Shown: positions 4,302 to 39,918, counted from the first letter of the stretch. The stretch: DNA of 64,000 nt from Verrucomicrobiia bacterium (GCA_963664225.1 OY760937.1:1536001-1600000), one strand, 5' to 3'. A program made the numbers and translations. The notes: generated by a model not told the origin, from the letters alone.

Positions 4302-5189
4302 ATGCCCGCAATTCAATCCGCCGCCGCACGCGAACAATCCCCGCCGCCCATTCAGGAATCGGGATGGATGCGTGTACTTCTAATATTGACCGCGATTTTC
4401 GTCATGGGCGCGTTTTTATTGCTGCCGCTCTTCGCCGTTTTCGCGCAGGCGCTGGGCAAGGGGTTGAGCGCTTATTTCAAGGCGATTACCGAACCTGCCG
4501 CGTGGGCCGCGATCCGGCTTACCTTGATCACTGCGCTCGTTGCCGTGCCCCTCAACACGGTCTTCGGAGTCGCCGCCGCCTGGGCCATCGCCAAGTTTCA
4601 ATTTTTCGGACGGAACTTTTTGATCACCCTGATCGATCTGCCCTTTTCCGTTTCGCCGGTGGTTTCGGGATTGATCTATGTGCTGGTCTTTGGACGCCAG
4701 GGCTGGATGGGATCCTGGCTGGATGACCACAACATCAAAATCATTTTCGCGCTGCCGGGCATTGTGCTGGCGACCACCTTCGTCACATTTCCGTTTGTGG
4801 CGCGCGAATTGATTCCACTCATGCAGAGCCAGGGGCGGGATGAGGAGGAGGCGGCGCTGGTGCTGGGCGCGGGCGGCTGGAAAACGTTCTGGCGCGTGAC
4901 ACTGCCCAATATCAAGTGGGGGCTCCTCTATGGAGTCATTTTGTGCAACGCCCGCGCGATGGGCGAATTCGGCGCGGTATCCGTGGTTTCCGGCCATGTG
5001 CGCGGGTTGACCAATACCATGCCGCTGCACATCGAGATTCTTTATAACGAATATCAATTTACCGCAGCCTTTGCGGTGGCGTCGCTGCTGACCCTGCTGG
5101 CGCTGGTGACTCTGGTTTTAAAAACATTCGTCGAAGCCAAGGCTCGCAAGGAGCATTCCAACACACCAGTACACGGCGCATCCGTATGA
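4302..5189 (+). CDS. cysW: Sulfate ABC transporter permease CysW
   Basis: [43 protein letters not shown]. Confidence 0.95.
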
Positions 5190-6262
5190 GCATCAAAGTC
5201 GAAAGCATTTCAAAAACATTTGGCGCCTATCAGGCGTTGAACCGGGTGAGCCTGGAGGTCCAAACTGGCGAGTTGGTGGCCTTGCTCGGGCCATCCGGTT
5301 CCGGCAAGACCACGCTGCTGCGCATCATCGCCGGGTTGGAATTCGCGGACCGGGACTCCGGCCATATCGAGATCGAAGGGCGCGAGGTGACGGCCTGGCA
5401 CGCGCGGGATCGCCAGATCGGCTTTGTGTTTCAACACTACGCGCTGTTCCGGCATCTGACGGTGTTTGAGAATATCGCCTTTGGTTTGCGGGTGCGCCCG
5501 CGTGCGCAGCGGCCCTCCGAGGAGGCGATTCAAAAGAAGGTCGCCGAGTTGCTTAAACTGGTGCAAATCGCGGAATTGGCCCAGCGGTTTCCATCCCAGC
5601 TTTCCGGCGGCCAACGTCAGCGTGTGGCTCTGGCGCGATCCCTGGCTGTGGAGCCGCGAGTGCTTTTGCTCGACGAACCCTTTGGCGCGTTGGATGCCAA
5701 GGTGCGCAAGGATTTGCGCCGGTGGCTGCGCCGCCTGCATGACGAAATTCATGTCACCAGCCTGTTCGTCACGCATGATCAGGATGAGGCGCTCGAGGTG
5801 GCGGACCGCGTGGTGGTGATGAACAAGGGACACATCGAGCAAATCGGCACTCCAGCCGAGGTCTATGATCGCCCCGCCAATCCCTTTGTGTATGACTTTC
5901 TAGGCAATGTGAATCTCTTCCGGGGCCGGGTGGAGTCCGGCCGTGTGCATATCGGCCGCGCCGAATACGCCATGCCGGAGGATGAAGCGTCCAAGGACGC
6001 GCCTGCCATTGCCTATGTGCGCCCGCACGACATTAAAATCCATCGACAGATTGCAGGACCGGATTTCATTCCTGCCGCAATCAAGTTGATCAATCCAATG
6101 GGATCCGTCGTGCGCCTTCAACTCGATGCCTTGGATGAATCGGGCGCGTTTGAAGTGGAACTAACCCGGGAGGAATGGAAGCTTCACAACTACCAGGCGG
6201 GAGAAAACGTCTTCGTGGAACTGCGCAATCTTCGTGTTTTCTCGGATGATTATGTCATTTAG
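5186..6262 (+). CDS. cysA: Sulfate ABC transporter ATP-binding protein CysA
   Basis: Walker [33 protein letters not shown]-terminus SDDYVI. Confidence 0.95.
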
Positions 6263-6636
6263 CTCGGGAATACGTTTCTTGAAGGTCAACAAGCTGTCTG
6301 CGAACAACGTATTACACGAGGCCAATTCCCTTCGCTCGCCTGCCATCTTCTGAACTGGGCAAAAACCAAGCAAAGTCAGGGATGACGTGAGGGCGCTGCG
6401 TAATTGTTTGGAATGTAATCGACGGGTTTTCTCCCGTTTAAAGATTGGCACCTCTTTCCACTACACAAGCCAATAGGCAGACCCGCCCTGCGAAAATGGC
6501 GCTATTCGACCAATCTGCCCAAAATTGGCCTTCAACCACCAGGCATGCCCAGGCAATGCAAAACATTATTCTGTTTGGCGGCAATGAGTTAGATGTGCTT
6601 TGACAATCCTGGAATGGGCCATGCTACGGACGCAGC

Positions 6637-7503
6637 ATGGTTCGAGTGATTGGCCATATTCTGGTTTTGGTTGTCTTGTTCGCTAACATGCTGTCGGCTC
6701 AGCCTCCCATCGGCCGCGACGTTCCCTTTGAATTCCGTGATGGATTGCTTTGGGTGCGCGTGCAAGCGACGAATCCCTCCCGAACCTTGCATTTTCTTCT
6801 GGATACTGGAGCCACAGTGAGCGCGGTGGATGAAGGTGTGGCAAGAGAGCTCGGGTTAAGGCTTGGGGAACGAGTAATGGTGCAAGGAGTTAAATCCGAA
6901 ATCGACGGTTATTGGCCAACAAGGTTGGTCGGCAATTGTGGCGATTATCAATTGCCGGATAAAATCCTGGCGGTCGACCTCAAGACATTGGGTTCAACCT
7001 GTTGCCAACCGGTTGACGGCCTGTTGGGGGCTGATTTTATACAGGGTAAAGTCGTCCAAATCGATTTCAAGGCCAACCGTTTGCGTGTTGTAGAGGGTCC
7101 CGTTCCGTTGAATCCTAACATTGAAACGATACCGTTACAAAACCAGGGATGCAAACTGCTGGTGCCCATGCACATTAATCACGGAAAGACTCAATGGTTT
7201 CGTCTGGATACGGGATGTGCGTCAGACCTGCATTGGGTTGTTGGAAAGGTTATTTCAACGGCTCGGAATGTAAAGGTCTCGGTAGGGCTGGCGCCAGTAT
7301 CCATTCCTTGGGACACCACTTTTGTTCGCTTGGGGCAAATGGAATTTGAAAATGTACCCGCAGGCCTGCATCAGGGACGCATCTTCAAAGGGGAGGATGG
7401 ATTGCTCGGAATGGGCCTGCTGAGGCGATTCGACCGGGTGACCATCGATTTTCCTGGCAAAAAACTGGTCCTGGAAAAATGCCCATCCATTCCTGAACGC
7501 TGA
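6637..7503 (+). CDS. Exported two-domain retropepsin-like aspartyl protease
   Basis: Signal peptide; two catalytic motifs, FLLDTGA and FRLDTGC, each followed by DGLLG. Confidence 0.8.
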   Translation: MVRVIGHILVLVVLFANMLSAQPPIGRDVPFEFRDGLLWVRVQATNPSRTLHFLLDTGATVSAVDEGVARELGLRLGERVMVQGVKSEIDGYWPTRLVGNCGDYQLPDKILAVDLKTLGSTCCQPVDGLLGADFIQGKVVQIDFKANRLRVVEGPVPLNPNIETIPLQNQGCKLLVPMHINHGKTQWFRLDTGCASDLHWVVGKVISTARNVKVSVGLAPVSIPWDTTFVRLGQMEFENVPAGLHQGRIFKGEDGLLGMGLLRRFDRVTIDFPGKKLVLEKCPSIPER

Positions 7504-7732
7504 ATGGTTCAGCCCTGTTAACCCGAGGGCCACCCTTCAAGACGCTCAGGTTGCGCCACGCTTCAGGGACTCTCTCTGTATCGAACCTCTAGAGACAGGC
7601 ACAGCGGCAAGCTTGATCCAGCACGAGGATCAAGCCGTTCGAGGTGCCACATCCACAACTCGAGTTTACAGAGCCCCTCGGGCTGCAGTCCTCGGTCGAT
7701 TTATTCCGGTGGCTGACATTGATCATTATTCC

Positions 7733-7758
7733 TGAGGGATAGGTTTCGGCGCGGCGTA
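7733..7758 (+). promoter_or_regulatory. ECF-sigma promoter copy 1
   Basis: TGAGGGAT-N13-GCGTA, with the same motif and spacing at 12362 and 19589. Confidence 0.75.
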
Positions 7759-7816
7759 TTAAGGACAACGAACAAATGGTGAATCGGTAAAAACATCCGG
7801 TTTACAGAAAGGAAAA

Positions 7817-8176
7817 ATGAACACCAATAAAACAGTCCGTGGAATCGTGGCCTTGATCGCTACTTTAACCATCGCGCAATCCGTGAGCGGGGCGGATATC
7901 CTGCTCTCTCCGAGTGCGGGGTCCCGCCAGACCTACCAAGTCTCTGGCATCGCAAATGATCGGGATTTCGTTCATGGCACAGTACAGAACACCTTTCAAT
8001 CGCCTCGAGGGCTGGCAAACCAGACACGGATGGTACCCGGGCCATCGACCAAGGATAGGGATTATGTCCATAACCAAAGCGGTTTGCGCCCCGGTAAGGA
8101 CCCGCTTCGCGAACAGTACGTCCGTTATTTGAAATCGACCGGAAAGGACGCCTATCAACTGGCACCGGTTAAATAA
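7817..8176 (+). CDS. Small secreted hypothetical protein with an internal repeat
   Basis: Signal peptide; repeated DRDFVH/DRDYVH units; GAAAGGA upstream of the start. Confidence 0.65.
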   Translation: MNTNKTVRGIVALIATLTIAQSVSGADILLSPSAGSRQTYQVSGIANDRDFVHGTVQNTFQSPRGLANQTRMVPGPSTKDRDYVHNQSGLRPGKDPLREQYVRYLKSTGKDAYQLAPVK

Positions 8177-12638: not shown

Positions 12639-12782
12639 AGTCCGTCGCACCTTCGGATAGATACTTGCGCGAATGCCTTGCATGATCTTGTTGCGCATAA
12701 ATAATGACGGCACACTTTAAAGAGATTAATTTGGATTTGTTGCGAGCTTTCCTATACACACATATTAAATATAATTTTGCCT

Positions 12783-14192
12783 ATGAAGTTGAAGCGCGCA
12801 CTCTATTTAACGACGGTTGGATTCCTGGGGGTGGCGCTTTTTGTTCTTGCCGGTTGCAAAGGTGTTCCGACAAAGGCAGAGAAGGAGGCGCGACAGCAAA
12901 TGCAGGAGGCTCGAGCGCATTATCGTCCCAATGATCACAAACCTGCGCTTCCGATTTTGACGACCAATTCCAACCTGGGCGATTTTCTGAGTTTTGCCCT
13001 GTTGAATCAGCCAAGTGTCGAGGCCGCTTATTACGACTGGGCGGCTTCGGTGGAGCGCATCACCACGGCCCGCTCCCTTCCGGACCCGCAGTTGACGTTT
13101 CAGATGGATATCCAGAATGTCGTCACCTCGATCATGCCGGGACTCATGGCCAATTTTCCGTGGCCGGGCAAACTCCGGGCCGGAGCCGGGGTGGCGTCGG
13201 CGGAAAGCCAGGCCAAATATTTTGCGTTTCAGTCGGCGGTCCTGAAGAGCGCTTTCGATGTGAAGAAGGCTTATTACCAGCTTTTCTTTCTCGAGGAAAA
13301 AATCCACGTCAATCGCGAGAACTTCAATCTGCTGGCAGGACTGGAAAAGCTTGCCCGCGCGCAAAACGAAGTGGGCAAGGTGACTTTGCAGGATGTGCTC
13401 CGCGCGCAAATCGAGCAGGCCCGCCTCAACACGGGAATTGCCAATCTCGAGGATTCGCGCAATTCGTTCCTGGCCCAATTCAAGGCGGCGTTGGGACTCA
13501 AAGCTCAAGATCCAGCCGCTCCAATGCCAAACCACTTTGAATCAACACCGCTGGATTTGACTTCCGACAAGCTTCTTGAGACTGCAATGGCTCAAAATAC
13601 CCGGCTCAAAGCACTGGAAGCCGAAGTGCGTGCGGCGGAAGTTTCCATTGTATTGGCTCGCAAGGCGCGCAGGCCTGATTTCAGCCTGGGACTCATGGCC
13701 GACGCGCAGATGGACCCAACACTCTATCGTCCCCTGGGCACAATGACGCTGCCCATCTGGCGGGACAAGATCGCGGCGCAAATCGCCGAGGCTCAAGCCA
13801 ACAAACGTTCAGCCGAAGCCCGCCTTTCTGACGAGCAGATTGCGCTGGCTGTGAATTTTGCGGACAGGAGTTTTCAGTATAGGGAAGCAACGCGCAACCT
13901 GGCCCTTCTCAATGACCAACTCTTGCCCAAAGCCCGTCAATCCCTCGACGTGGCCCGCTCAGGTTATCTTGGTGGACAAATCGATTTTTTCAATCTGACC
14001 GATGCGGAACGAACATTGCTCAGCTTCGAATTGGACCGGGTGGAGGCATCCATGCAACGGGAGATCGCCCTGGCTGAACTCTCGCTGATCATCGTGGGCA
14101 TGCCGCCATCCAATTCTGCCACAGATCCAAAGTCCCCCGGAATGTCGGGAGGCAGCCCCTCTTCGCCAAAGAAACAGTCCGGAGGCATGTAA
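12783..14192 (+). CDS. TolC/CusC-family outer-membrane efflux lipoprotein
   Basis: Lipobox LAGC; SLPDPQL, FPWPGKL, LPIWR and YxxGQIDF repeats typical of outer-membrane factors. Confidence 0.88.
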   Translation: MKLKRALYLTTVGFLGVALFVLAGCKGVPTKAEKEARQQMQEARAHYRPNDHKPALPILTTNSNLGDFLSFALLNQPSVEAAYYDWAASVERITTARSLPDPQLTFQMDIQNVVTSIMPGLMANFPWPGKLRAGAGVASAESQAKYFAFQSAVLKSAFDVKKAYYQLFFLEEKIHVNRENFNLLAGLEKLARAQNEVGKVTLQDVLRAQIEQARLNTGIANLEDSRNSFLAQFKAALGLKAQDPAAPMPNHFESTPLDLTSDKLLETAMAQNTRLKALEAEVRAAEVSIVLARKARRPDFSLGLMADAQMDPTLYRPLGTMTLPIWRDKIAAQIAEAQANKRSAEARLSDEQIALAVNFADRSFQYREATRNLALLNDQLLPKARQSLDVARSGYLGGQIDFFNLTDAERTLLSFELDRVEASMQREIALAELSLIIVGMPPSNSATDPKSPGMSGGSPSSPKKQSGGM

Positions 14193-14218
14193 TTTTTCCT
14201 GCAAACCAATCATTATTT

Positions 14219-16222
14219 ATGAAATGCAAGACCCCGAATTGGAAATGGCCGGTTCTATGCACGCTGGCTTTGTTGATGACAGTCAGCGCAGGTCTCATAC
14301 TTACGGCTTGTGGGCGGGCGGAGGGGCCTGTGGCGAACGCGGCAGCTAAAACCCTTTACACCTGCGGCATGCATCCCCAGGTCATCCAGGATAAACCCGG
14401 TAATTGCCCGATCTGCGGCATGAAGCTCACGCCGATCCGCAAACAGGCCGGAACTTCTGGAATAACCAACGCGTCCGCCTCAAATACGGGCGAACGCAAA
14501 ATCAAATATTACAAATCGACCATGAATCCCGGCGAGATGAAGCCTGAACCGGGCAAGGACAGCATGGGCATGGACATGGTCCCAGTCTATGCGGACGAGG
14601 CTGCGGCCGCCCAGTCTCAGACCATCGATCTCGACTCTGTCACCATCCAAACCATGGGCATCCGGACGGCTGCAGTCACACGTGGTCCATTGCGCCGGGT
14701 CATTCGAACCGTGGGCACGATCGATTACAACGAGACCGCTCAGCAGGATGTGAGCACCAAGTTCAAAGGCTGGATTGAAAAGCTTTACGTGGACGCCACC
14801 GGTCAGCAGGTCCATCGCGGCGATCCCCTTTTCGAGATTTATTCCCCGGAGCTTTACAGCGCGCAACGCGAATACCTGCTCGCCATTGATCAGGGAACGA
14901 ATGCGCCTGGCGCCATGGCCCTCAAAACCAGCGCGCTGACCAAGTTGAAGTTTTTTGACATCTCCGATGCGCAAATTGCAGATCTGGACCGCACGGGCCA
15001 GCCCAGCAAAACCCTGCGCATCCTCGCTCCGATGGATGGTTTTGTAGTCGAAAAGATGGTGGTTCAAGGCCAGATGGTGGATCCCGGCATGAAAATCTAC
15101 CGGCTGGCGGACCTCGGTCTGGTATGGGTGCAGGCCCAAGTTTATGAGCAGGACCTGTCCTATGTGAAGTTGGGGCAGGAGGCCACCGTCGCACTGTCCT
15201 ATCTTTCCGACCGAGAGTTTCGCGGGAGGGTTACCTACATTTATCCCAACGTGGATGAAAAGACCCGGACAGCGCGCGTGCGGATGGAATTTCACAACCC
15301 GGGTTATTTTCTAAAGCCGGGAATGTTTGCGACCGTTCAGGTCTCCTCTGAGTTGGACCCCTCCGTGCTGCTGGTCCCTGACATGGCCATCTTGCGCAGC
15401 GGCGAGAAATACACGGTCTTTGTGGCCCTCGATGGAGGGAAGTTCGAGCCGCGCACCCTCATATTGGGACCGCAAGCCGAGAATGACATGTACCAGGTGA
15501 TCAGTGGACTCAAGGAAGGCGAACGGATCGTCACTTCCGGCCAGTTCATGCTCGATTCGGAAAGCCAGCTTCGGGAGGCGATCCAGAAAATGCTTCAACC
15601 CAACAAACCCGGCGGTAGCGAACCTGTCGCGCAGGCGGCCCATGGTGGTATGGCTGGCGGTCAAAAACCCATGGCGGCGGCATTCAATGGAACCAACGCT
15701 CCCCGATCTGATGCTTCCGTGAAGTACATCTGCCCGATGCCGGAGCACGTTACCATCCAGTACGACCATCCAGGCAAGTGCTCCATCTGCGGCATGACCC
15801 TTGTTCCAGTGTCGGCAGCCGTTTTGAAAAACCTGCCTCCTGACGGCAAGCTGCTTTATTATACCTGCCCCATGCCGGAGCACAGTGACGTGCGCTCAGA
15901 TAAACCCGGCAAGTGTCCCAAGTGCGACATGACGCTGATTCCGGTCATGCAGCCGACGCCACTAGCGCCCACCTCCACGAACCAACCGGTTGTTGGGAAA
16001 GTTCAGGCCGCGCCCGCCATCCCCGCCACGCTTTACACCTGCCCGATGGCCTCCCATGCGGATGTGGTTTCGGACAAACCCGGCAAATGCCCCAAGTGCG
16101 AGATGGATCTTGTGCCCACCAGCACGGTGGCCCATGGGAAAGTCGCTGAGGAGGCCTGGCGCAAACAACATTCGAGTGCTCCGCCAACTACTGACACGAT
16201 GCCTCAGCAACACCAACACTAA
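14219..16222 (+). CDS. cusB: CusB-type RND periplasmic adaptor with multiple heavy-metal-binding domains
   Basis: YTCGMHP...CPICGM, KDSMGMDMVP, GWIEKL/YSPEL, LKPGMFA, SGQFMLDSES; three C-terminal YxCPM...PGKCxxC.M domains. Confidence 0.88.
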   Translation: MKCKTPNWKWPVLCTLALLMTVSAGLILTACGRAEGPVANAAAKTLYTCGMHPQVIQDKPGNCPICGMKLTPIRKQAGTSGITNASASNTGERKIKYYKSTMNPGEMKPEPGKDSMGMDMVPVYADEAAAAQSQTIDLDSVTIQTMGIRTAAVTRGPLRRVIRTVGTIDYNETAQQDVSTKFKGWIEKLYVDATGQQVHRGDPLFEIYSPELYSAQREYLLAIDQGTNAPGAMALKTSALTKLKFFDISDAQIADLDRTGQPSKTLRILAPMDGFVVEKMVVQGQMVDPGMKIYRLADLGLVWVQAQVYEQDLSYVKLGQEATVALSYLSDREFRGRVTYIYPNVDEKTRTARVRMEFHNPGYFLKPGMFATVQVSSELDPSVLLVPDMAILRSGEKYTVFVALDGGKFEPRTLILGPQAENDMYQVISGLKEGERIVTSGQFMLDSESQLREAIQKMLQPNKPGGSEPVAQAAHGGMAGGQKPMAAAFNGTNAPRSDASVKYICPMPEHVTIQYDHPGKCSICGMTLVPVSAAVLKNLPPDGKLLYYTCPMPEHSDVRSDKPGKCPKCDMTLIPVMQPTPLAPTSTNQPVVGKVQAAPAIPATLYTCPMASHADVVSDKPGKCPKCEMDLVPTSTVAHGKVAEEAWRKQHSSAPPTTDTMPQQHQH

Positions 16223-16233
16223 GCCCGCCACTT

Positions 16234-20636: not shown

Positions 20637-20645
20637 TGCCGCACC

Positions 20646-25322: not shown

Positions 25323-25577
25323 AGTCGTCAATCAAATCCACCGACGCGCACAACTGCAAATCATTATCCTCAGCACGTCTCCGCAGAAGGAATAACTCAG
25401 GCTGGGCGTGAAAAGGGAACACTCCACGCACTCAGAACATGAAAGACGACCCACTGCATAGCCACGGTTTGTTCGGGAGCGGAAGAGCCAGTATTACGGT
25501 TGGCCGGATTCATCGCGACAGCCTTTCAGACGAGGAGTTTGAACGCTTGTTCGTGTGCATCGGGAACACGTCGCCAG

Positions 25578-27867: not shown

Positions 27868-27871
27868 AATC

Positions 27872-28801: not shown

Positions 28802-28910
28802 GATGTTGACACATATACACACCTGATATACCTATTACAATGGTATGTGGTGTTTGTCGAGACGACGAATTGAAAAAGTTGAAGCTGCATACCGGACAGA
28901 AAGGTTAAAA

Positions 28911-30904: not shown

Positions 30905-31097
30905 ATGAATACCTGGTCGTATCGCTGCTCTACTGCATCGGGTTCTGCGCTGGCGCCTAATGATTCCCAACACTCAAGGCTTCCCAAAACAATGCCATTA
31001 CCGGGTATCAAAGAATGTTTTGACCATTTTGCCATAGACGTGAAAGACCGCAGATTGTTTCTTGCCGCCCTCCGAAACAATACACTGGAAGTCGTTA
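30905..31097 (+). pseudogene. Truncated N-terminal fragment of a YncE-like beta-propeller protein
   Basis: TMPLPGIKECFDHFAIDVKDRRLFLAALRNNTLEVV resembles the first propeller blade; similarity ends where the convergent sir gene stops. Confidence 0.55.
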
Positions 31098-33437
31098 CTG
31101 TTTTTCAATGACCACCGACCAATGATCACCCTCTTTGACTTGTTCAATGATTTTGTGGCCCTCGCCTGCCACCGAGCGAGGCACGTTTTGGGCCGGCGCA
31201 CCGTCGTCCAACAGAATCTTCAAGCGCTGCCCCGGTGTGAGTTTTTCCAGGGCCAGCTTGGTTTTAACAAAGTTCATGGGGCAAGTGACCCCTCGAAAGT
31301 CCTTTAGGACAAAAGTCTCGGCATGCGTTTTCTCAGTCTCTGAGGCTTTCGCAGTCACTTTGGAGGCTTCCCCCGGAAACCGCAGGGCATTGTCCATCGT
31401 CCCATAAAGCGCTTCCATCGTTTGGGCCAGACTCAACACCTCCCGGTCCCGGGCCTGGATATCCGCCAGATTCTTCTTTGCCGCGCTTTCCACCAAAGGC
31501 AGATACTTAGCTTCAACCAGCCTGGTCTCGATGAAGTGTTGCCGGAATTGCCAGAACACGTCGGCATCCGACCGTGCTTCAACGCCTCGCGTTATCAACA
31601 GCATGCGAGACGCGGACAAGGTGATCTGGTAAAGTGTTTCTCCACGCTGATCGGGCTTCAGTCCGGCCAGATGTTCCTTCAGCTCTTTAAGGCGTTTCAA
31701 ATCGAATTCGATCAAGTCAAACAGCCCGGCCGAGCATTCACCCACGCCGCGAGCCGCCAGGGAGAACACCTCGGTGGCTGTCCAGTCGTAGTAATAATTC
31801 TTGTCCTCCTCGAAATCCGGAATCTCCCGGTGCTCCTCGGTCCAGGCTCGAATGAACGGCTTGCCCTTCCCTTCGAGATACTGGCCATAAGTCCCAACCT
31901 GGGACTTGTGCTTTAGGTAATCTCTCAGAAAATCGGTGACAAAGCATGGCAAATCCCGGGCACTGACCTCTCCCGCCGGTTCCGCCAATTGGGCAAAACC
32001 ATTCCCAAGTTTTGCTCCCACAACGATTCCGTACGCAGGAAACGGGGTCTGTCCTTTGCGAGCCACCCTGCCATAGAAACCCAGGTCGGCGGACATGTGG
32101 GCGCCGCAGGTGTTGGGGCAGCCCGAAAGATTCATCCTAAAATCAGACAATTGGTCCAAGTCAAGCTTGGACGTTTTGAGTTTCTTCACCACCGCGGCCA
32201 GAGCGCCGCGAGGCAGGCATATCCCCAGCTTGCATGTGGCCGCGCCGGTGCAAGCCACCGAGGAACCCACAAAACGCGGTTCGGAAGCCAGCGGTGCGAT
32301 ATCCTTGATCAGATTATAAGCATTGCCCAGAAACTCATCGGGAATATTGCGCAGGCAAAGGTTCTGGTCGAGCGTCGCCCGTAAAACATCAGTGCCGAAC
32401 GGAGCCAAAAAGTCGGCCAGCGCGAGGGCGCTCTTATTGGGAAGGTCCCCCAGGAAGATGGGGATAAAAACTGAATACAGGCCCGGCTGCTTTTGAGGCG
32501 TTACATACCGCTTGCGCCAAAGCTCAAATTCCGGTGAAGAAACCGAATCCGGCGTGAGCGTCGGCCGCATCACTGCGGAATACGGCTGCGGCAGCAACAA
32601 AGACGCCACCTTATCTTGACGCAACGACTCCACTTCCTTCTGATACAACTCTCGAAATTTCGCCTCGCCCAGGTTGTTCCACAGAAACCGCAATCGGGCC
32701 GCGTAACGATTCTTCCGATTGCCGTGCTGGTTAAACAAACGCTTGATCGCCTCCGCAATGAGACACACTTCCGTGTCGGGAACAAACTCATGAAGCCGGT
32801 GTCCAACCTGCGGTTTGGTGCCCATTCCACCGGCGATATAGACCTCGAACCCTTTTACGCCATCTTGAACTTTTGCAATGAAACCCAGGTCGTTGAAGGC
32901 TGCCCGGGCATTGTCAGCGGGAGAGTTGGAGAAGGCAATTTTGTATTTTCGCGGCAGTAGCCAGGAATCGGGTTCACTGACAAGCCGCGTGGTCAGGGCA
33001 AAGGCATGGGGCGAGACATCAAACACCTCATCGGCTGCCACCCCGGAATCGAACGAAGCCGTGATGTTGCGCACGGTATTGCCGCCGCCGCCCCGAGTGG
33101 ACAGCCCGACCTCCAGCAATTGCCGCATAATGAGAACCACGTCCTCAAGTTGGACGCTGTGAAGCTGAAGCTCCTGGCGCGTGGTGATATGAAGCGTATC
33201 GGCGGCGTGCTGCTCCGAAATTTGCGCCACGCGGCGCAGTTGTTCGGGAGTAATGGCACCCGCGGCACAACGGACACGCACCATGAATGTGTTGTCCATG
33301 CGCTGTTCGTAAACTCCGAACGGCACGCGGCGCACTTTAAACGCGGAAGCTTCCAATCGACCTTCCCGGAAGTCCCGAATCTTGGACTCAAGATCGTCAA
33401 TTTCGCCCTTGAGCGAGTCAGGGATGGTGTAAAACAT
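31095..33437 (-). CDS. sir: Siroheme sulfite reductase (Sir/NirA type) fused to a C-terminal TusA/SirA sulfur-carrier domain
   Basis: HITTRQELQLH, LPRKYKIAFS, CTGAATC and SGCPNTCG ligands; C-terminal DFRGVTCPMNFVKTK...NVPRSV. Confidence 0.88.
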   Translation of the reverse strand: MFYTIPDSLKGEIDDLESKIRDFREGRLEASAFKVRRVPFGVYEQRMDNTFMVRVRCAAGAITPEQLRRVAQISEQHAADTLHITTRQELQLHSVQLEDVVLIMRQLLEVGLSTRGGGGNTVRNITASFDSGVAADEVFDVSPHAFALTTRLVSEPDSWLLPRKYKIAFSNSPADNARAAFNDLGFIAKVQDGVKGFEVYIAGGMGTKPQVGHRLHEFVPDTEVCLIAEAIKRLFNQHGNRKNRYAARLRFLWNNLGEAKFRELYQKEVESLRQDKVASLLLPQPYSAVMRPTLTPDSVSSPEFELWRKRYVTPQKQPGLYSVFIPIFLGDLPNKSALALADFLAPFGTDVLRATLDQNLCLRNIPDEFLGNAYNLIKDIAPLASEPRFVGSSVACTGAATCKLGICLPRGALAAVVKKLKTSKLDLDQLSDFRMNLSGCPNTCGAHMSADLGFYGRVARKGQTPFPAYGIVVGAKLGNGFAQLAEPAGEVSARDLPCFVTDFLRDYLKHKSQVGTYGQYLEGKGKPFIRAWTEEHREIPDFEEDKNYYYDWTATEVFSLAARGVGECSAGLFDLIEFDLKRLKELKEHLAGLKPDQRGETLYQITLSASRMLLITRGVEARSDADVFWQFRQHFIETRLVEAKYLPLVESAAKKNLADIQARDREVLSLAQTMEALYGTMDNALRFPGEASKVTAKASETEKTHAETFVLKDFRGVTCPMNFVKTKLALEKLTPGQRLKILLDDGAPAQNVPRSVAGEGHKIIEQVKEGDHWSVVIEKQ

Positions 33438-33439
33438 AA

Positions 33440-33838
33440 TTAATCCTCAAGAATATGAAGTTCCTCCACAGTGACTTGTCCGTCACGAATTTGGAAGGAT
33501 TTGACGACCGGCTGCGGTTCGGCCAGAGAGACGATGACGTAGCTCAGGGCCGGGTCGTTGGCCAGACGAATGTCCTCTTGTGAGGGCCGGGCTGGAGAAG
33601 CCGGGTGGCTATGATAAACCGCGCTCAGGCGCAGCCCGCCCGCCCGCATCTGTCGAACTGCCGCAAACTGTTCGGCGGGCTCAAAACTGAAGTGCTCAGG
33701 CGAGGCATCGACGTTTTTCATTTTGAAAATGGCGCTGATAATCCCATCTTTTACAGCCAGGTAACCGCACGCCTCGATCGGGGCATCCGCCTGCGCATGT
33801 TGGATCACCTGATTTACAATGGAACGTTGAATTTTCAC
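33440..33838 (-). CDS. JAB/MPN+ (M67, Mec/HcyD-like) metallopeptidase
   Basis: PIEACGYL...YHSHPASPARPSQED JAMM motif. Confidence 0.9.
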   Translation of the reverse strand: MKIQRSIVNQVIQHAQADAPIEACGYLAVKDGIISAIFKMKNVDASPEHFSFEPAEQFAAVRQMRAGGLRLSAVYHSHPASPARPSQEDIRLANDPALSYVIVSLAEPQPVVKSFQIRDGQVTVEELHILED

Positions 33839-34662
33839 AGCGCGGTTTTTTTAAGATCGCATACCACCGACGACTCCTCGTCAAAAAGTTCGGTAATCAT
33901 CGGATGTTCGCCGCAAAGGGGACAGTCAGGATTCCGTTTGACCTTCACCTTCCTGAAATTCATTTCCAGCGCATCGAACGTCAGGAGCGAATCGGTGAGA
34001 AGATGGCCGACGCCGGTAATGTATTTCAGGGCTTCCGTGGCCTGGATTGTTCCCAGCATGCCGGCAATCGCCCCCAGCACCCCCGCTTGCGAGCAAGTCG
34101 GCACCACACCCTTGGGCGGCGGTTTGGAAAACAGGCACCTATAGCAGGCAGATTGGCGGGGCTGCACGGTCAGAGTCTGGCCATTGAACCGAAGAATCCC
34201 CCCATGTGAATAAGGAACGCCCGCCAGCACACAGGCGTCGTTAATCAAAAACTTGGCGGGAAAATTGTCCGTCCCGTCGATCACAAAATCGTAACCGGCA
34301 ATCAACGCCCCGATATTGTCAGCCATCACAAATTGGTGATAGGTGCGGACCATGATATCGGGATTGATGGCGCGCATTTTGGCGGCGGCGGACTCAACCT
34401 TCAATGTTCCCACATCGGGAGTGTGGTGAATGATCTGGCGTTGGAGGTTGGACAAATCGACATTGTCGGCATCCACAATGCCGAGCGTGCCCACTCCCGC
34501 TGCCGCGAGATACAATGCGGCGGGCGCCCCAAGCCCCCCTGCCCCAATGATAAGCACCTTTGATTGATACAGCCGCTCCTGGCCCTTGATGCCAATCTCC
34601 TTAAGGATGATGTGGCGGCTATACCGTTCAAGCCGCTCTTCGGTGAAGAATTCCATAAGCAT
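33835..34662 (-). CDS. MoeB/ThiF-family adenylyltransferase (HcyF-like)
   Basis: RYSRHI, GAGGLG, SNLQRQ, DGTDNF, CYRC and CPLC zinc sites. Confidence 0.92.
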   Translation of the reverse strand: MLMEFFTEERLERYSRHIILKEIGIKGQERLYQSKVLIIGAGGLGAPAALYLAAAGVGTLGIVDADNVDLSNLQRQIIHHTPDVGTLKVESAAAKMRAINPDIMVRTYHQFVMADNIGALIAGYDFVIDGTDNFPAKFLINDACVLAGVPYSHGGILRFNGQTLTVQPRQSACYRCLFSKPPPKGVVPTCSQAGVLGAIAGMLGTIQATEALKYITGVGHLLTDSLLTFDALEMNFRKVKVKRNPDCPLCGEHPMITELFDEESSVVCDLKKTAL

Positions 34663-35885
34663 TATAATGCGAAGGTCAGATCCTCCAGTATGTCGGCCGC
34701 ATCCTCAATGCCAACCGAGAGCCTCATCAGATCCTCGCCCACTTCCATCCCGGCCTTCTCGTCCAGCGAATACTCGCAGAAGATGGTCGATGCTGGGTGG
34801 AGAATGAGCGTTTTATTGTCGTGAATGTTGGTGGCCCGGCGCACGACCTTGCATTTATTCATCAACTCGAAGCAAGCCTGACGGTCCTCCAGACAGAAAC
34901 CCAGGAGGCTGCCGCTTCCGTTCGGAAACTGTGCGAGGGCGGTCCTGTGATAGGGTGAGCTTTCAAGTCCGGGATAAATCACCTGTTTGATCCTGGAATT
35001 CTTTAGCAGCGCTCTGGCGATTTGAAGCGCATTGTCACAGCTCTTCCGAAGACGCAATTCCAGGGTCTCAAGTCCCAGCGTCTGCAAATTGGCGTTATGG
35101 GGTGAAAGGCACGCCCCTAGGTTGCGATAGACCTCCCGGCGCAGATAAACGAGCAACGCCATCGGGCCGCATTTCTCCGCCCAGGGACGAATCTTCGGAC
35201 TATGGCTCCAATCAAAGATGCCATTATCGATAATCAATCCACCTATGGATGTGCCGCCGCCCGAAATGCTTTTTGTGCTGGATAGGACTTCGACGGCGAT
35301 CCCAAAGTCCCGCGATTTGAACAGATAAGGCGTGGTCATGGTCCCATCGATAATGACCGGAATATTCTTCGCCTGCGCGATCCGGGTCACCATGCGCATG
35401 TCGGCCACCTGGAGTTGGGGATTGGTGATGGTCTCCAGGAAAATCGCCCGGGTCTTGTCTTCAATCGCGGCTTCAAGTTCCTCTGGATTGGTCATGTCCA
35501 CGCAGGATACGTTCAGCCCCCAGGGTTTGAGCGTCTGCGCAAACAAGGAATGAGTGTTGCCAAATAGAAACCGGGAGGTCACCACGTTGGCGCCCGCTTC
35601 AGCAATGGCCAGAATCACATTTGCAATGGCGGACATCCCCGAGGTTGTTGCGATGACACCGCGAGCCTCAGCCAGTATCCGGACTCGATCCTCAAACTCA
35701 TCCACCGTTGGATTCGAGATGCGCGAATAGGAGTGCGCCAGGCGTCGGCCTTCGAATGCCTGCTGCATATCCAAAGCCGTCTTAAACTCAAAAGCCACGC
35801 TGTCGTAAACTGCGGGGCGTAATGTCCCGTGAGGGTCGTTCTTGCGGAGAGAACCGTGGATCGCCTTTGTTGCAAAACCTTTCAC
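34662..35885 (-). CDS. O-acetylhomoserine sulfhydrylase-like PLP enzyme (MetY family)
   Basis: YSRISNPT, ETITNP, SSTK PLP lysine, LHPAST, RLSVGIED. Confidence 0.85.
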   Translation of the reverse strand: MKGFATKAIHGSLRKNDPHGTLRPAVYDSVAFEFKTALDMQQAFEGRRLAHSYSRISNPTVDEFEDRVRILAEARGVIATTSGMSAIANVILAIAEAGANVVTSRFLFGNTHSLFAQTLKPWGLNVSCVDMTNPEELEAAIEDKTRAIFLETITNPQLQVADMRMVTRIAQAKNIPVIIDGTMTTPYLFKSRDFGIAVEVLSSTKSISGGGTSIGGLIIDNGIFDWSHSPKIRPWAEKCGPMALLVYLRREVYRNLGACLSPHNANLQTLGLETLELRLRKSCDNALQIARALLKNSRIKQVIYPGLESSPYHRTALAQFPNGSGSLLGFCLEDRQACFELMNKCKVVRRATNIHDNKTLILHPASTIFCEYSLDEKAGMEVGEDLMRLSVGIEDAADILEDLTFAL

Positions 35886-36097
35886 TGGCCGCAACCTCCT
35901 CCAAGGAAATAGAGAAATTCGATTTCGTCGTTTTCCTGAATTTGGGTTGCGTGATGGAGTTTGCCATCAACAAACTTTCCGTTGAGCTGGACGCTCACCG
36001 TCTCGGGCTGCTCCACTTTATTCAAGGTCAACAGTTCGGCCACCGTGAGGGCGGTGTTGTCAATTGTCTGGGATTCTCCGTTTACTTTGATCTTCAT
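35882..36097 (-). CDS. ThiS/HcyS-like ubiquitin-fold sulfur carrier with a masked C-terminus
   Basis: IKVNG...VSVQLNG...DEIEFLYFLGGG followed by CGQ. Confidence 0.88.
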   Translation of the reverse strand: MKIKVNGESQTIDNTALTVAELLTLNKVEQPETVSVQLNGKFVDGKLHHATQIQENDEIEFLYFLGGGCGQ

Positions 36098-36100
36098 AAA

Positions 36101-37510
36101 TCAGATGGCAAAATCGTTGTAATCGAGCTTGGCCGACTCCGAAGGCGGTAATAGAAGGCCCGCGGCTACAGTGGCGTTGGTGCCCTGTTCGATCAGGATG
36201 AATGAACCCGTCAGGCGATTGGTGGTATAGCCATCGAAGACCAGCGGATGGGAGGTTTGGAGACGGATTTCACCGATGTCGTTCAAAACCAGTTCAGAGG
36301 GTTCCGACTCCGGTTCGAGCGTTGAGATGTTAATGCGATTCTCAATCCTCGATATGATGGCTTGGACCGTTCGCGTGGTATGTTTCAGCAAGTACCTTTT
36401 GCCGCGCTGAAGCGGACGCTGATGCATCCAGCATATCCTTGCCTGCAAATCGGTGCTCGAGCCTGGAAGATGCTCCGGCCCGATAATCATGTCTCCACGG
36501 CTGATATCGATATCATGATCGAGCACGAGGGTGATGGACTGCGGGCAGAAGGCCTCAGGCAACGATCCGTCGCTGGTATGGATCTCCTTGACGGTGCTGA
36601 TCAATCCGCTGGGCAACACGATCACTTTCTGTCCCACGCGCACGATGCCGCCGGCGATCTGGCCGCTGAATCCGCGAAAATCGTGCAACCGGGGATCCGT
36701 GGGGCTGTTCGGACGGTTGACCCATTGGACGGGCAGGCGGAAACCATTGAGATTCCAGTCGCTGGCGATATGAACGGTTTCAAGATGTCCCAGCAGCGTC
36801 GGCCCTTGGAACCACGGCGTGTTGGGAGAAGCGCTGACGACGTTATCCCCGTTGAGCGCGCTGATGGGGATGAACTTTACATCCTTGATGTCCAGGCGAG
36901 GCAGAAATTTCTCGAATTCCTCGCAAATCTCGCGAAACCGCTCTTCGCTCCAATTGACCAGATCCATTTTGTTGATGGCGACCACGAGGTGCGGAATGCG
37001 CAGCAGCGAGGCGATATAGGTATGACGGCGGCTTTGCTCGATGACCCCGGCCCGCGCATCCACCAGCACAATCGCCAGGTTGGCATTGGAAGCCCCGGTC
37101 ACCATGTTGCGGGTGTATTGGACGTGTCCGGGCGTGTCCGCGATGATGAACTTGCGTTTTGGTGTGGCGAAATAGCGGTAAGCCACATCAATCGTGATGC
37201 CTTGCTCGCGTTCAGCGCGGAGGCCATCGGTGAGATTGGCCAGGTTGATTTGGCCGTCACCGGTGATATCGGCGGAACGCTCCAGAGCCTCGAGTTGGTC
37301 CTCCATCAAAGACTTCGAATCATACAGAAGCCGTCCGATGAGAGTCGATTTGCCATCATCCACTGAACCGCACGTGTTGAAGCGGAGGATTTCGACGGGA
37401 TGCTGCGGCGCTTGTGGCGCGTTGCCAATGTTACCATTGGGATTCAGGAACGGTTGGGGCGCAATCCGCCCCGCCATTTCGGGAGAGCGAGTTGCAACAA
37501 GTGTAGTCAT
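36101..37510 (-). CDS. cysN: Sulfate adenylyltransferase GTPase subunit CysN, no APS-kinase domain
   Basis: CGSVDDGKSTLIGRLL, EREQGITIDVAYRYF, DTPGH, NKMD; ends NDFAI. Confidence 0.95.
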   Translation of the reverse strand: MTTLVATRSPEMAGRIAPQPFLNPNGNIGNAPQAPQHPVEILRFNTCGSVDDGKSTLIGRLLYDSKSLMEDQLEALERSADITGDGQINLANLTDGLRAEREQGITIDVAYRYFATPKRKFIIADTPGHVQYTRNMVTGASNANLAIVLVDARAGVIEQSRRHTYIASLLRIPHLVVAINKMDLVNWSEERFREICEEFEKFLPRLDIKDVKFIPISALNGDNVVSASPNTPWFQGPTLLGHLETVHIASDWNLNGFRLPVQWVNRPNSPTDPRLHDFRGFSGQIAGGIVRVGQKVIVLPSGLISTVKEIHTSDGSLPEAFCPQSITLVLDHDIDISRGDMIIGPEHLPGSSTDLQARICWMHQRPLQRGKRYLLKHTTRTVQAIISRIENRINISTLEPESEPSELVLNDIGEIRLQTSHPLVFDGYTTNRLTGSFILIEQGTNATVAAGLLLPPSESAKLDYNDFAI

Positions 37511-37528
37511 GGTAATGATTGAAAATCG

Positions 37529-38431
37529 TTAAAAATAGCCCTGTTTTTTCCGGTCCTCCATGGCCGCTTCGGAGGCTTTATCATCGGCCCGGCTGCCCCG
37601 TTCGGTGACACGCGCCGCGGCAATTTCGGCGATGATGTCCTCCACCGAATCCGCCGGCGATTCCACCATTCCGGTGCTGATGATATCGCCAATGGTGCGC
37701 ACCCGGACGATGACGTCCTTGACCGCTTCATTGCGTTTGAGCGGCAGCAGGTTACTCACTGGCAGCCATTGGCCCAGTCGGCGGACACATTGCCGCCGGT
37801 GGCTGAAGTAGATAGTGGGGACTTCGAGTTGCTCGCGCCGTATATATTCCCACACATCCATCTCAGTCCAATTGCTTAGAGGAAAGACCCGCATGTGTTC
37901 TCCCGGATTAACCCGGGCATTATAGAGATTCCAGATTTCCGGGCGTTGGTTTTTGGGATCCCACTGGCCAAAACTGTCGCGAAAACTGAAAAATCGTTCC
38001 TTGGCCCGTGCTTTTTCCTCATCGCGCCGTGCCCCGCCAATGCAGCAGTCAAACCGAAATTCCTCAATGGCTGCGAGCAGAGTCGGTATTTGCAGCCGGT
38101 TGCGGCTGACCTCGCCTGGCGCCGGAACGGCAATGCCATTGGCGATGGCGTCTTCCACCTTTCGGATAATGAGCCGCGCGCCGAGTTGACTGGCCCGGCG
38201 GTCACGAAATTCGTTCAGCTCAGGAAAATGATGCCCGGTGTCCACGTTCAGCAGCGGCATCGGAATGTCGGAGGGCCGGAAGGCCTTTTCCGCCAGACGC
38301 AGCAGGCATATGGAGTCTTTTCCGCCTGAGAACATGATGCAGGGCCGCTCGAACTCGGCGGCAACTTCGCGCATGATGTGAATGGCCTCGGTTTCGAGGT
38401 GCTGGAGATGGTCCAGATGATAACTCCTCAT
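37529..38431 (-). CDS. cysD: Sulfate adenylyltransferase subunit CysD
   Basis: FSGGKDS, GGARRDEEKARAKER, WDPKNQRPE, RVFPLSNWTE, MEDRKKQGYF. Confidence 0.95.
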   Translation of the reverse strand: MRSYHLDHLQHLETEAIHIMREVAAEFERPCIMFSGGKDSICLLRLAEKAFRPSDIPMPLLNVDTGHHFPELNEFRDRRASQLGARLIIRKVEDAIANGIAVPAPGEVSRNRLQIPTLLAAIEEFRFDCCIGGARRDEEKARAKERFFSFRDSFGQWDPKNQRPEIWNLYNARVNPGEHMRVFPLSNWTEMDVWEYIRREQLEVPTIYFSHRRQCVRRLGQWLPVSNLLPLKRNEAVKDVIVRVRTIGDIISTGMVESPADSVEDIIAEIAAARVTERGSRADDKASEAAMEDRKKQGYF

Positions 38432-39111
38432 ATTGAAGACCCGGAATTCTCGACTTGTGAGGCGACCGCTTTTGCACCCCAGTTGGCATGCAAGCCGCAC
38501 TCGCGCTTCTCGTCGGCTTTGGCGGGATCAAAATAATCCCATTCGTTGGGCAATTGGTGCGTTTTCAAATACTCTTCCATATCGGCGTCCGTCAGATAAA
38601 AGACGGGGCTAACCTTGAGAGTGCCAAAGTTCGCGTCGTGACTAACGATATCCAGCCCCGCCCGGTTTGGATTCTGAACCTTGCGCAAAGCCGTAATCCA
38701 CACCGTGGGCGCCAACTCGCGCATACCGCGCTGGAACGGCTCCAATTTCATCAAGGCGCTGAACTCTTTCAGGGCGGCCTCATCCTCCGGTCCGGGAATC
38801 GGCCCGTGGATGGCATCCCTGTGAGCGGGTGTGATCCTGGGGAGGTAGGCTTTAATGTTCAGCTTGAGCAGCCGTTTAAGCTGCTCGGCATGCAAGTAGG
38901 TCGCCGGCCGATTATACCCATGATCCACCCAAAGCACGGGAATATCGGCTTGGACCTGCGTGGCAAGGTGCAGCACCGCGGCTTCGTAAGGGCGAAAGTT
39001 CGTGGAAACGACCGCATGGCCTCCGGCTTGGGCAATGGCCCACCGGGTAATCTCGAGCGGTGACTTGGAGCGCAACTCCGCGTTCCATTGATCGATCAGA
39101 TGTGGATTCAT
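38428..39111 (-). CDS. cysH: (P)APS reductase CysH lacking Fe-S cysteines
   Basis: PAPS-reductase fold with C-terminal RECGLH; no CC or CxxC cluster ligands. Confidence 0.8.
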   Translation of the reverse strand: MNPHLIDQWNAELRSKSPLEITRWAIAQAGGHAVVSTNFRPYEAAVLHLATQVQADIPVLWVDHGYNRPATYLHAEQLKRLLKLNIKAYLPRITPAHRDAIHGPIPGPEDEAALKEFSALMKLEPFQRGMRELAPTVWITALRKVQNPNRAGLDIVSHDANFGTLKVSPVFYLTDADMEEYLKTHQLPNEWDYFDPAKADEKRECGLHANWGAKAVASQVENSGSSI

Positions 39112-39182
39112 ATCGAATAATCCTCCGAATAAATAGGGCGTTCCCCAAACTCAATGACGACCAGGGCCCAAATCCTTGTCAT
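39108..39182 (-). CDS. Putative 24-aa leader peptide ending EDYSI, coupled to cysH
   Basis: MTRIWALVVIEFGERPIYSEDYSI; its stop overlaps the cysH start (ATGA); lies downstream of the predicted promoter. Confidence 0.4.
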   Translation of the reverse strand: MTRIWALVVIEFGERPIYSEDYSI

Positions 39183-39315
39183 CTCAGATACCCAAAAATC
39201 AAAAAACACAAATTCCGGACTCCCTGACCACAAACTGCGGACTGGTCCGTTCGTTTCGATCTGGCGCTCGCGAAAACCGTTTCTATTGGATTGCAGACGT
39301 TTCAAATCGCAGAAA

Positions 39316-39343
39316 ATCATACAGCTATACTACTGTATGTCAA
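39316..39343 (-). promoter_or_regulatory. Promoter of the cys operon with an internal inverted repeat
   Basis: Minus-strand TTGACA-N16-TATGAT; CATACAG-N8-CTGTATG at 39318-39339. Confidence 0.6.
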
Positions 39344-39456
39344 CTGAGTATCGGTACTTTATGTATGTTGTTGTTGTGTAATTTTATGCGCTTGTTTTTA
39401 TAAGTTATGCGCGTGTATCTTGATTATTCCAATCAAGTTTGTATATTCATGGTCAC

Positions 39457-39918
39457 ATGAAATTATCGCTTCGTGGGCAATACGCTTTGCGCGCCTTGAT
39501 CGCGCTGGGAGATAGCTATGAAAACGACGTGATTCCCATGCAGACCATTTCCGACCAGCAGGAAATCCCAAAACGGTTTCTTGAGCAGATTCTGAACGAC
39601 TTGCGGGCTGTGGGATTCGTGGAGAGTAAGCGCGGAATTGCCGGAGGTTATCGCCTGGCCCGACCAGCACACGAAATCACCCTCGCACAGGTCATCGAGC
39701 ATGTGGAAGGCCCCTTGGCGCCGATGGCCAACCTGAGCCAGAAGCCACCCAAACTGAATCCGCAAGCGGGAGGCGCTCAACTCGCAATCCGTGTCACGAT
39801 GAAAGATGTTCGCGATTTAGTTGTGAAGGTCCTCGATGCGGTGACGATTGCCGACCTGTGCGAGCGGGCGCGCCAATTGCGCGACCGCCTGAGTGAATCC
39901 CCCGACTACGCGATTTAA
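39457..39918 (+). CDS. Rrf2-family regulator, CymR-like (no Fe-S Cys triad)
   Basis: MKLSLRGQYALRAL, FLEQIL, SKRGIAGGYRLARP, EGPLAP; ends PDYAI. Confidence 0.88.
   Translation: MKLSLRGQYALRALIALGDSYENDVIPMQTISDQQEIPKRFLEQILNDLRAVGFVESKRGIAGGYRLARPAHEITLAQVIEHVEGPLAPMANLSQKPPKLNPQAGGAQLAIRVTMKDVRDLVVKVLDAVTIADLCERARQLRDRLSESPDYAI

Follow-up and report, generated by a model that had tools for sequence, protein, structure and literature searches.

Sulfur loci and the C-termini of their products

The window analysed here is a stretch of 64,000 nucleotides (nt) from a Verrucomicrobiia bacterium (GCA_963664225.1 OY760937.1:1536001-1600000), and it carries two sulfur loci, several products of which end in the same short pattern, D-[YF]-x-I. 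The first locus, assigned with Pfam and NCBIfam models, has the order DUF2292-cysT-cysW-cysA (3167-6262, plus strand). Its last gene, cysA (5186..6262, plus strand), encodes a 358-residue sulfate ATP-binding cassette (ABC) transporter ATPase with a C-terminal regulatory domain (Pfam ABC_tran, CysA_C_terminal and TOBE_3), which passes the CysA family model TIGR00968 (397.7 bits; cut-off 342.75) and lies under the cut-off of the E. coli-type equivalog NF008105 (449.2 versus 502). Residues 353-358 of CysA are SDDYVI (6242..6259, plus strand), the motif DYVI itself being encoded at 6248-6259. The second locus (31095-39111, minus strand) comprises a sulfite reductase-TusA fusion, JAB, ThiF, MetY-like and ThiS genes, and then cysN, cysD and cysH. 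The GTPase subunit of ATP sulfurylase, CysN (36101..37510, minus strand; 469 residues; TIGR02034 with 555.9 bits over a cut-off of 336.1; Pfam GTP_EFTU), has a C-terminal extension of residues 454-469 (36104..36151, minus strand) that finishes with DFAI (36104-36115). Running divergently from the cysH side of this locus is the gene for a CymR-like regulator of the Rrf2 family (39439..39918, plus strand; Pfam Rrf2, PF02082, 1.5e-32), probably starting at 39457 as in the stored protein P0241, and its terminus is SPDYAI, with DYAI at 39904..39915 on the plus strand. A fourth instance, SEDYSI with the motif at 39111-39122, ends a 70-residue open reading frame (ORF; 39108..39320, minus strand) that is doubtful as a gene and leads into cysH (38428..39111, minus strand; PAPS/APS reductase family, that is, phosphoadenylyl or adenylyl sulfate reductase; Pfam PAPS_reduct), whose own product ends in GSSI (38431-38442).

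An earlier note on this DNA, which proposed that transporter, ATP sulfurylase and repressor share control by the cysteine synthase CysK and O-acetylserine (OAS) through this tail, had read the termini as SDDYVI for CysA, YNDFAI for CysN, SPDYAI for Rrf2, SEDYSI for the small ORF and GSSI for CysH, and translation gives exactly these. Chance is not the explanation of the shared tails in the window. Only four of the 770 six-frame ORFs of at least 30 residues end in D[YF]xI, and they are CysA, CysN, Rrf2 and the 70-residue ORF; the amino-acid composition of the window predicts 0.009 such ends per 56 likely genes, and for that number of genes the Poisson probability of three or more is 1.3e-7. Ile is the last residue of six of the 56, every one in the two sulfur loci: the four just named, CysH, and the small DUF2292 protein that opens the cysTWA operon (3167..3451, plus strand; Pfam PF10055, 3e-12; C-terminus DKNI, 3437-3448). 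This amounts to 6 of 14 sulfur-locus genes against none of the 42 others (Fisher p = 9e-5). For the full motif the corresponding figures are 4/14 against 0/42 (p = 0.003), or 3/13 (p = 0.011) when the doubtful small ORF is left aside. The remaining cys products have other ends. The permeases CysT and CysW, encoded upstream of cysA in the operon (3451-4290 and 4260-5189, together 3451..5189, plus strand; Pfam BPD_transp_1), terminate in QSLS and GASV, and the small subunit of ATP sulfurylase, CysD (37529..38500, minus strand; Pfam PAPS_reduct), encoded directly upstream of cysN and with its real start probably the ATG at 38429-38431, terminates in GYF, as do all its relatives.

Conservation of the tails of CysA, CysN and Rrf2

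Conservation in orthologues had been set beforehand as the test able to refute a shared role for the tails, and it was followed in the best 120 of the 4,819-8,000 scored hits of each homologue search: the tail is kept in the homologues of CysA, CysN and Rrf2, and the 70-residue ORF has no homologue among 1.84e9 representatives. The nearest relatives are metagenomic contigs with 87-95% identity, and the source names of the homologues include Verrucomicrobia, Pedosphaera, Opitutae, Candidatus Sulfotelmatobacter, Acidoferrales, Limnocylindria and Geobacteraceae, though labels of metagenome-assembled genomes (MAGs) are sometimes unreliable. We infer that several of the CysA, CysN and Rrf2 homologues co-occur in single genomes, since their longest contigs agree in length (6,534,777 for two CysN and one Rrf2; 138,539 for one CysA and one CysN). 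Ile is terminal in 115 of the 120 CysA, all 120 CysN and 118 of the 120 Rrf2 sequences.

Among the CysA homologues (62-100% identity) a D[YFW]xI terminus is present in 115 of 120, most often as DYSI (64) or DFSI (38), and F(-6), D(-3) and I(0) hardly vary in the C-terminal alignment. The AlphaFold2 model of CysA places its last strand at residues 350-352 and leaves 353-358 as coil, the last block having a mean predicted local distance difference test score (pLDDT) of 60. The best match in the PDB, 1z47, aligns only to residue 286 and is therefore uninformative on the tail.

CysN homologues (77-100% identity) have D[YF]xI in 120/120, with DFAI in 90, as the end of a longer conserved stretch, E-x-V-K-P-E-Y-x-D-F-A-I. 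In the AlphaFold2 model everything after the strand at 447-453 is coil and residues 464-469 have a pLDDT below 50, so that the extension is predicted to be disordered. A genome scan with CysN yielded 80 related loci (1.27 Mb), and in 79 of these the end of CysN is readable. At 65% identity or more (35 loci) the terminus is D[YF]xI in 33 and EYEI in one, and in one further locus (L006) there is no tail. Below 65% (44 loci), 42 CysN proteins end at the core, with AGMI[VL] or a few residues further on; these are mostly from Actinomycetota and Bacteroidota, with a few from Planctomycetota (Phycisphaerales, Scalindua), Kofleriaceae, Acidobacteria and Pontiella. The two tailed CysN proteins in this lower group are from Verrucomicrobia MAGs and have the termini DYVI and EFII. 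Since distant CysN proteins stop where the core ends, the tail is an extension of about 16 residues, typical of Verrucomicrobiota-type loci and missing in other phyla.

Rrf2 provides the sharpest outline of the motif. Its best 120 homologues (54-100% identity) have D[YF]xI in 113 and [YFW]xI in 118, and the tail sits behind a hypervariable linker: with the alignment anchored at the C-terminus, entropy is around 3 bits from -11 to -4, falls to 0.39 at D(-3) and 0.80 at Y/F(-2), rises to 2.46 at the free position and is 0.14 at I(0). Such a distribution, with positions -3, -2 and 0 fixed and with -1 and the Rrf2 linker free, is by its sequence features the signature of a short linear motif.

The 70-residue ORF and the cysH junctions

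The earlier note had counted the ORF coupled to cysH as a fourth carrier, and this part of its proposal is unsupported. A phmmer search of 1.84e9 representatives found only the ORF itself, there is no Pfam match even at E 0.01, and no small ORF with the tail occurs in the 80 related loci, where all 39 D[YF]xI ORFs have at least 60 residues; a conserved small protein was accordingly rejected. Several features are those of a leader. The ORF overlaps the start of cysH by ATGA, and its last codons, GAG GAT TAT TCG ATA TGA, include both the cysH Shine-Dalgarno sequence GGAGGA and the cysH ATG. The best promoter-like site there (39316-39343; TTGACA, 16 nt, TATGAT; 11 of 12 matches) has the ATG of the ORF inside its -10 hexamer, so that a transcript from it would begin downstream of that ATG. 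Base composition is also low: GC is 0.455, 2.4 standard deviations under the gene mean of 0.542, and third-position GC is 0.507, 1.7 standard deviations under the mean of 0.621. The ORF thus probably resembles 5' leader DNA more than a gene, and a conserved gene is unlikely. A riboswitch or other structured RNA in the cysH leader was also sought: Rfam gives no match with the gathering score or with E relaxed to 1, and the fold z-score is +1.14.

Its SEDYSI is nevertheless identical to the consensus tail of CysA. Local alignment of the ORF with CysA scores 44 against 25 +/- 3.8 for shuffles, of which 0/300 reach 44; once the last four residues are removed it falls to 28 (shuffles 24 +/- 3.6), a value that 46/300 shuffles reach. 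The ORF may provide a short leader peptide of 24 residues from an internal ATG, or be a product of chance, or, judged from this resemblance, it may be a relic of the 3' end of a cysA gene formerly coupled to cysH.

The stop codon of cysH overlaps the start of cysD within ATATGA, and the ORF-cysH (39108-39122) and cysH-cysD (38428-38442) junctions both have TCN ATA TGA, giving Ser-Ile-stop over the next ATG. CysH was considered as a fifth conserved client and rejected: of 28 CysH proteins in related loci only four have a terminal Ile (GAGI, GLI and two GSGI), and GSGI is a weak ligand in the published assays cited below. The CysH proteins of L007 and L024, ending in GSGI, and of L005, ending in GAGI, are like the SAT (serine acetyltransferase) of Leishmania, with its tail GSGI.

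The same tail on other proteins of related loci

A set of 952 non-overlapping ORFs of at least 100 residues from the 80 loci, all unrelated to the sulfur proteins of the window, includes 30 that end in Ile and only two that end in D[YFW]xI, and both encode SATs. Four SATs of about 310 residues are present altogether, with the termini DFSI (L009), DWSI (L004), DWQI (L028) and SWDI (L039); they match the cysE and EpsC models at E of about 1e-43, scoring 145.9-150.9 bits where the EpsC cut-off is 150, and none reaches the cut-off of TIGR01172.

In a complete Chthoniobacteraceae genome (L025, 2993-3724, minus strand) CysA has only 243 residues and neither CysA_C_terminal nor TOBE domain, and its terminus is LDFEI. 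No remnant of the regulatory domain was found downstream by tblastn, and the gene adjoins cysW, cysT and a sulfate-binding protein gene beside sir-cysHDN. A DUF2061 membrane protein encoded upstream of another sir-cysHDN cluster (L040, 2-223) ends in EDYEI, a terminus that none of its four homologues in other loci has. Small DUF2061 membrane proteins recur beside cysD and cysN in Verrucomicrobia and Bacteroidota (L040 2-223, L029 1435-1719, L078 8811-9065, L079 4915-5232 and L055 87-806), the L055 protein being fused to a longer C-terminal part that by eye looks P-loop kinase-like.

All 11 Rrf2 genes found beside cysN in the related loci encode aromatic-x-Ile ends, namely nine EMYYI, one EMYHI and one PDYSI. 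The EMYYI proteins are Opitutae-type regulators encoded directly after cysN (L002, L004, L009, L015, L020, L022, L024, L027 and L028), with a length of 137 residues (167 as called in L004), and they provide a second flavour of tail beside DYxI. D-[YF]-x-I is thus a portable add-on to the flexible C-termini of sulfur proteins in Verrucomicrobiota and some other environmental lineages.

CysK as the proposed receptor

The pattern is one that CysK is known to bind. DYVI, the end of CysA in the window, is also the tail of Arabidopsis SAT and is a competitive inhibitor of Leishmania major cysteine synthase with a Ki of 4 uM, its IC50 against the Arabidopsis OAS (thiol) lyase being 8 uM; DFSI, the tail of Mycobacterium tuberculosis SAT, competitively inhibits the OAS sulfhydrylase of that organism, with crystal structure 2Q3C, while GSGI is a weak ligand with an IC50 of about 1.5 mM (PMC3388911; PMC9547175). 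In Staphylococcus aureus CysE ends in DDYII and CymR in YMFYI, and crystal structures have both decapeptides in the active site of CysK; there the Ile carboxylate sits where that of the substrate would be, and the Kd of the CymR peptide is 25 nM (10.1101/2024.09.19.614015). The SAT-CysK complex is dissociated by OAS and stabilised by sulfide (PMC12895370).

The window tails, DYVI, DFAI and DYAI, have the features of these ligands: a terminal Ile, an aromatic residue at -2 and an acidic one at -3. They also appear to be exposed and flexible, as indicated for CysA and CysN by coil of low pLDDT in the AlphaFold2 models and for Rrf2 by its hypervariable linker only. As in the cysteine synthase complex of SAT and CysK, a free C-terminal Ile follows an aromatic and an acidic residue on a flexible tail, and two exact tetrapeptides, DYVI of the window CysA and DFSI of 38 of the best 120 CysA homologues and of the L009 SAT, are published inhibitors; unlike there, the tails here belong to a transporter ATPase and a GTPase, as candidate clients. 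CysK docking is the most economical account, since the tails match its ligands residue for residue, are confined to sulfur proteins and have a pattern also seen in the SATs of this clade, and CysK is the best reading of what receives them. We consider it fairly probable that D-[YF]-x-I-COOH is a conserved, portable motif through which the tails insert into the CysK active site in competition with OAS.

The Rrf2 regulator adds a distant new member to the CymR-CysK kind described in Bacillus subtilis and S. aureus. It too is encoded beside sulfur genes and has an aromatic-x-Ile tail, and the EMYYI of its Opitutae-type relatives is near the YMFYI of S. aureus CymR. It scores 112.6 bits with TIGR00738 (cut-off 73.3), and the CymR equivalog NF047409 is its second-best match at 92.3 bits, below the cut-off of 195, which makes it a distant relative that is CymR-like in logic and outside the equivalog. 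IscR and NsrR, unlike CymR, have a set of three Cys ligands for an Fe-S cluster; the window Rrf2 has a single Cys and so cannot hold such a site. Its differences from CymR are a tail of the SAT type, DYAI, and its occurrence in another phylum, with DNA binding and dependence on CysK being putative.

Clients of CysK other than SAT are known. CdiA-CT, the contact-dependent inhibition (CDI) toxin of E. coli 536 with the end GYGI, is activated by CysK, and EGL-9 is bound by CYSL-1 (PMC12895370, PMC6829319). Like the proteins considered here, these enter the CysK site with a C-terminal Ile peptide; unlike them, they are from outside sulfur metabolism, and here several steps of one pathway would share one socket. 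In ATPases of ABC importers regulatory domains are established inputs, as in MalK with EIIA-Glc and in the trans-inhibition of MetN and ModC. The C-terminal TOBE-like domain of CysA (CysA_C_terminal, TOBE_3) is likewise a potential input for metabolic control; the difference is that in those proteins a small molecule or EIIA acts on a folded domain, and for CysA a putative protein socket would act on a terminal peptide, which persists even where the regulatory domain is missing (L025). For ATP sulfurylase, Wei et al. 2002 are said to have found that E. coli CysK stimulates CysDN, a functional link like the one proposed here, and to our knowledge no docking motif has been described for it. CysK, CysE, CysD and CysN can form complexes (PMC6829319). 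The plant cysteine synthase OASTL-A lowers sulfate uptake and binds the transporter SULTR1;2 at its STAS domain (PMC4212615), so that there also a cysteine synthase contacts a sulfate importer, though one of the SulP/SLC26 type with a STAS domain rather than an ABC ATPase, and the cited passage describes no C-terminal Ile tail.

A 2026 article lists CdiA toxin, EGL-9 and CymR as the only C-terminal-Ile clients besides CysE (PMC12895370). Full-text literature searches found no description of CysA or CysN as a CysK client, and though subscription journals and supplements may hold more, this agrees with the earlier note, to which the CysA tail was new.

Modelling of tail-CysK complexes had also been proposed, and it was carried out for CysA residues 319-358, with their alignment, and B. 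subtilis CysK as a stand-in. The interface score ipSAE was 0.51 (0.48, 0.51, 0.56), with 0.00 for the best of three controls, and the runs had a contact agreement of at least 59% and a partner pLDDT of at least 36. This supports the pairing weakly: in the calibration 116 out of 157 solved complexes pass the ipSAE mark, along with 2 out of 215 mismatched pairs, and values up to 0.60 comprise only 18 of the 157 together with both of the passing mismatches. As a CysK-peptide complex is already among the solved structures, the model may have reproduced what it had learned. Because of this, and because no interface was reported and CysK was from another phylum, the model provides a likeness and not binding.

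A number of points weigh against CysK docking. As the earlier note had said, no cysK is in the window: among the 58 ORFs scanned none matches the cysteine synthase (PALP) or SAT families, so that cysE is absent from them too. In the related loci L001-L039 the Pfam PALP domain is in none of the 67 ORFs scanned out of 83 candidates of 280-345 residues (the other 16 being three SATs scanned separately, ten ORFs antisense to cys genes and three from the non-verrucomicrobial L034 and L035), and a motif filter found no CysK near cysN in relatives. The sole docking model has the weak score and the stand-in from another phylum just given. Neisseria gonorrhoeae CysE ends in DFMI and yet forms no CysK complex in vitro (10.1101/2025.03.26.645513), from which it follows that the motif alone is insufficient. 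The CysA tail is predicted to protrude only about six residues from the TOBE-like domain, which bears on steric access. Part of the 120/120 conservation in CysN may be shared ancestry, given the high identity within that set. Five of the 120 CysA homologues are without the tail, stopping earlier or ending otherwise, and, as CysN of other phyla also works without one, the tail is an accessory. Finally, the sign of any effect on CysA and CysN could equally be activation or channelling. The proposal of the earlier note for common control by CysK and OAS thus stands as regards the conserved tails, their SAT-like pattern and the known ligand tetrapeptides, and its binding and regulatory parts are inferred only.

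Other explanations

That the tails are real docking motifs for some other receptor is unlikely. CysM, a non-catalytic CysK-like sensor paralogue on the lines of CYSL-1 with EGL-9, or an unrelated domain for C-terminal peptides could serve, and the failure to see cysK in the window or near cysN in L001-L039 is what such a receptor would lead one to expect; EGL-9 does bind a CysK homologue (PMC12895370). The synthesis of cysteine may also be unusually organised in these bacteria, as homocysteine would come by the ThiS/JAB/ThiF/MetY-type route. Set against these are the SATs of related loci, which carry the same type of tail and for which CysK is the only known tail partner, and the binding of the exact tetrapeptides by plant, Leishmania and mycobacterial cysteine synthases, because of which any canonical CysK present is expected to bind the tails.

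It is decidedly improbable that the tails act within or between their carriers, in the packing of the CysA dimer, CysDN or the Rrf2 dimer, with the likeness to SAT being convergence. The conserved stretch of CysN is longer than four residues (E-x-V-K-P-E-Y-x-D-F-A-I) and CysA has an invariant Phe six residues from its end, as packing might require, but the motif recurs across five unrelated folds, one of its carriers being a CysA that lacks the regulatory domain, the Rrf2 linker is hypervariable, and the predicted structures leave the tails unpacked.

By analogy from general knowledge, a hydrophobic last residue on an exposed, disordered end might be a C-terminal degron by which a protease would clear unneeded sulfur-assimilation proteins. 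This is highly improbable, as the fixed Asp at -3 and aromatic residue at -2 match CysK ligands and no degron that we know of, and SAT and CymR tails of this pattern are documented as binding elements.

The least credible alternative is coincidence with inheritance and no shared function, to which the 70-residue ORF might belong (its codons are constrained by the ribosome-binding site and start of cysH, and its Ile and that of CysH both come from the ATATGA overlap), but which is very unlikely for CysA, CysN and Rrf2, given 0.009 ends expected per 56 genes against three or four observed, position-specific conservation behind variable linkers and the independent presence of the motif on unrelated proteins.

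A possible mechanism and its significance

If CysK docking is correct, the terminal Ile carboxylate of each tail would enter the CysK active site as do the tails of SAT, CymR and CdiA-CT. With ample sulfur and little OAS, unoccupied CysK sockets would hold the tails. Rrf2 bound by CysK would be stabilised as a repressor on the intergenic DNA between cysH and rrf2, much as CysK stabilises CymR on DNA in B. subtilis (PMC12895370). A CysK dimer might grip the two tails of the CysA dimer, hinder closure of the nucleotide-binding domains and so lower uptake, as OASTL-A does with SULTR1;2, and binding to CysN could hold back the GTP-driven ATP sulfurylase or tether it. Under a shortage of sulfide, rising OAS would displace the tails, and the pathway would open at three levels together.

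If the tails bind CysK, the list of its clients (SAT, CymR, CDI toxin, EGL-9) gains sulfate import and sulfate activation, the first two committed, energy-consuming steps, and one metabolite-gated socket would coordinate transport, enzymes and transcription. As hundreds of environmental sequences from phyla abundant in soil and freshwater carry the motif almost unchanged, this would be a widespread regulatory principle, and C-terminal D-[YFW]-x-I would provide a simple sequence rule for seeking further CysK clients. A larger scheme is conceivable for Verrucomicrobiota and related soil and freshwater lineages, though we hold it more tentatively: CysK or a CysK-like sensor could be a single OAS-gated hub for CysA, CysN, SAT, Rrf2 and sometimes DUF2061, in effect a post-translational cys regulon, in which a CysK dimer, having two sockets, could clamp the tails of the CysA dimer and lock the transporter. 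Such a hub would be comparable in logic to PII or EIIA-Glc, and would be the first inducer-exclusion-like control of bacterial sulfate uptake.

Other features of the window

The part of the second sulfur locus at 31095-36097 (minus strand) looks like a protein-thiocarboxylate route to homocysteine, with a ThiS-like carrier, a JAB/MPN peptidase, a ThiF-type activator and a MetY-like pyridoxal phosphate enzyme, and its sulfite reductase is fused to a C-terminal TusA domain. The carrier ends in GGGCGQ, so that trimming is needed to expose GG. The cluster resembles the HcyS/HcyD/HcyF/MetY system of Wolinella.

Beside Rrf2 (40386-41865, minus strand) are a C-terminal fragment of IS21 IstB (66 residues) and a DDE_3 transposase (373 residues), signs of rearrangement. 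A metal-resistance neighbourhood (12777-21518, plus strand, and 23808-28822, minus strand) encodes an outer-membrane factor, a membrane-fusion protein with four HMBD repeats and a resistance-nodulation-division (RND) pump, and with them an extracytoplasmic function (ECF) sigma factor, a small HMBD protein, a NicO-type transporter and two ChrB-like genes. Near the start of the window (571-2919, plus strand) is the gene for a protein of 782 residues with cytochrome c-type domains (c554, c552, c7), HEAT and many TPR repeats. From 56000 to 64000 the G+C content drops from about 0.54 to 0.46-0.49, and there are ORFs without family match and a TrwB/DUF87-like ATPase (62449-63972); this end of the window may be a mobile element.

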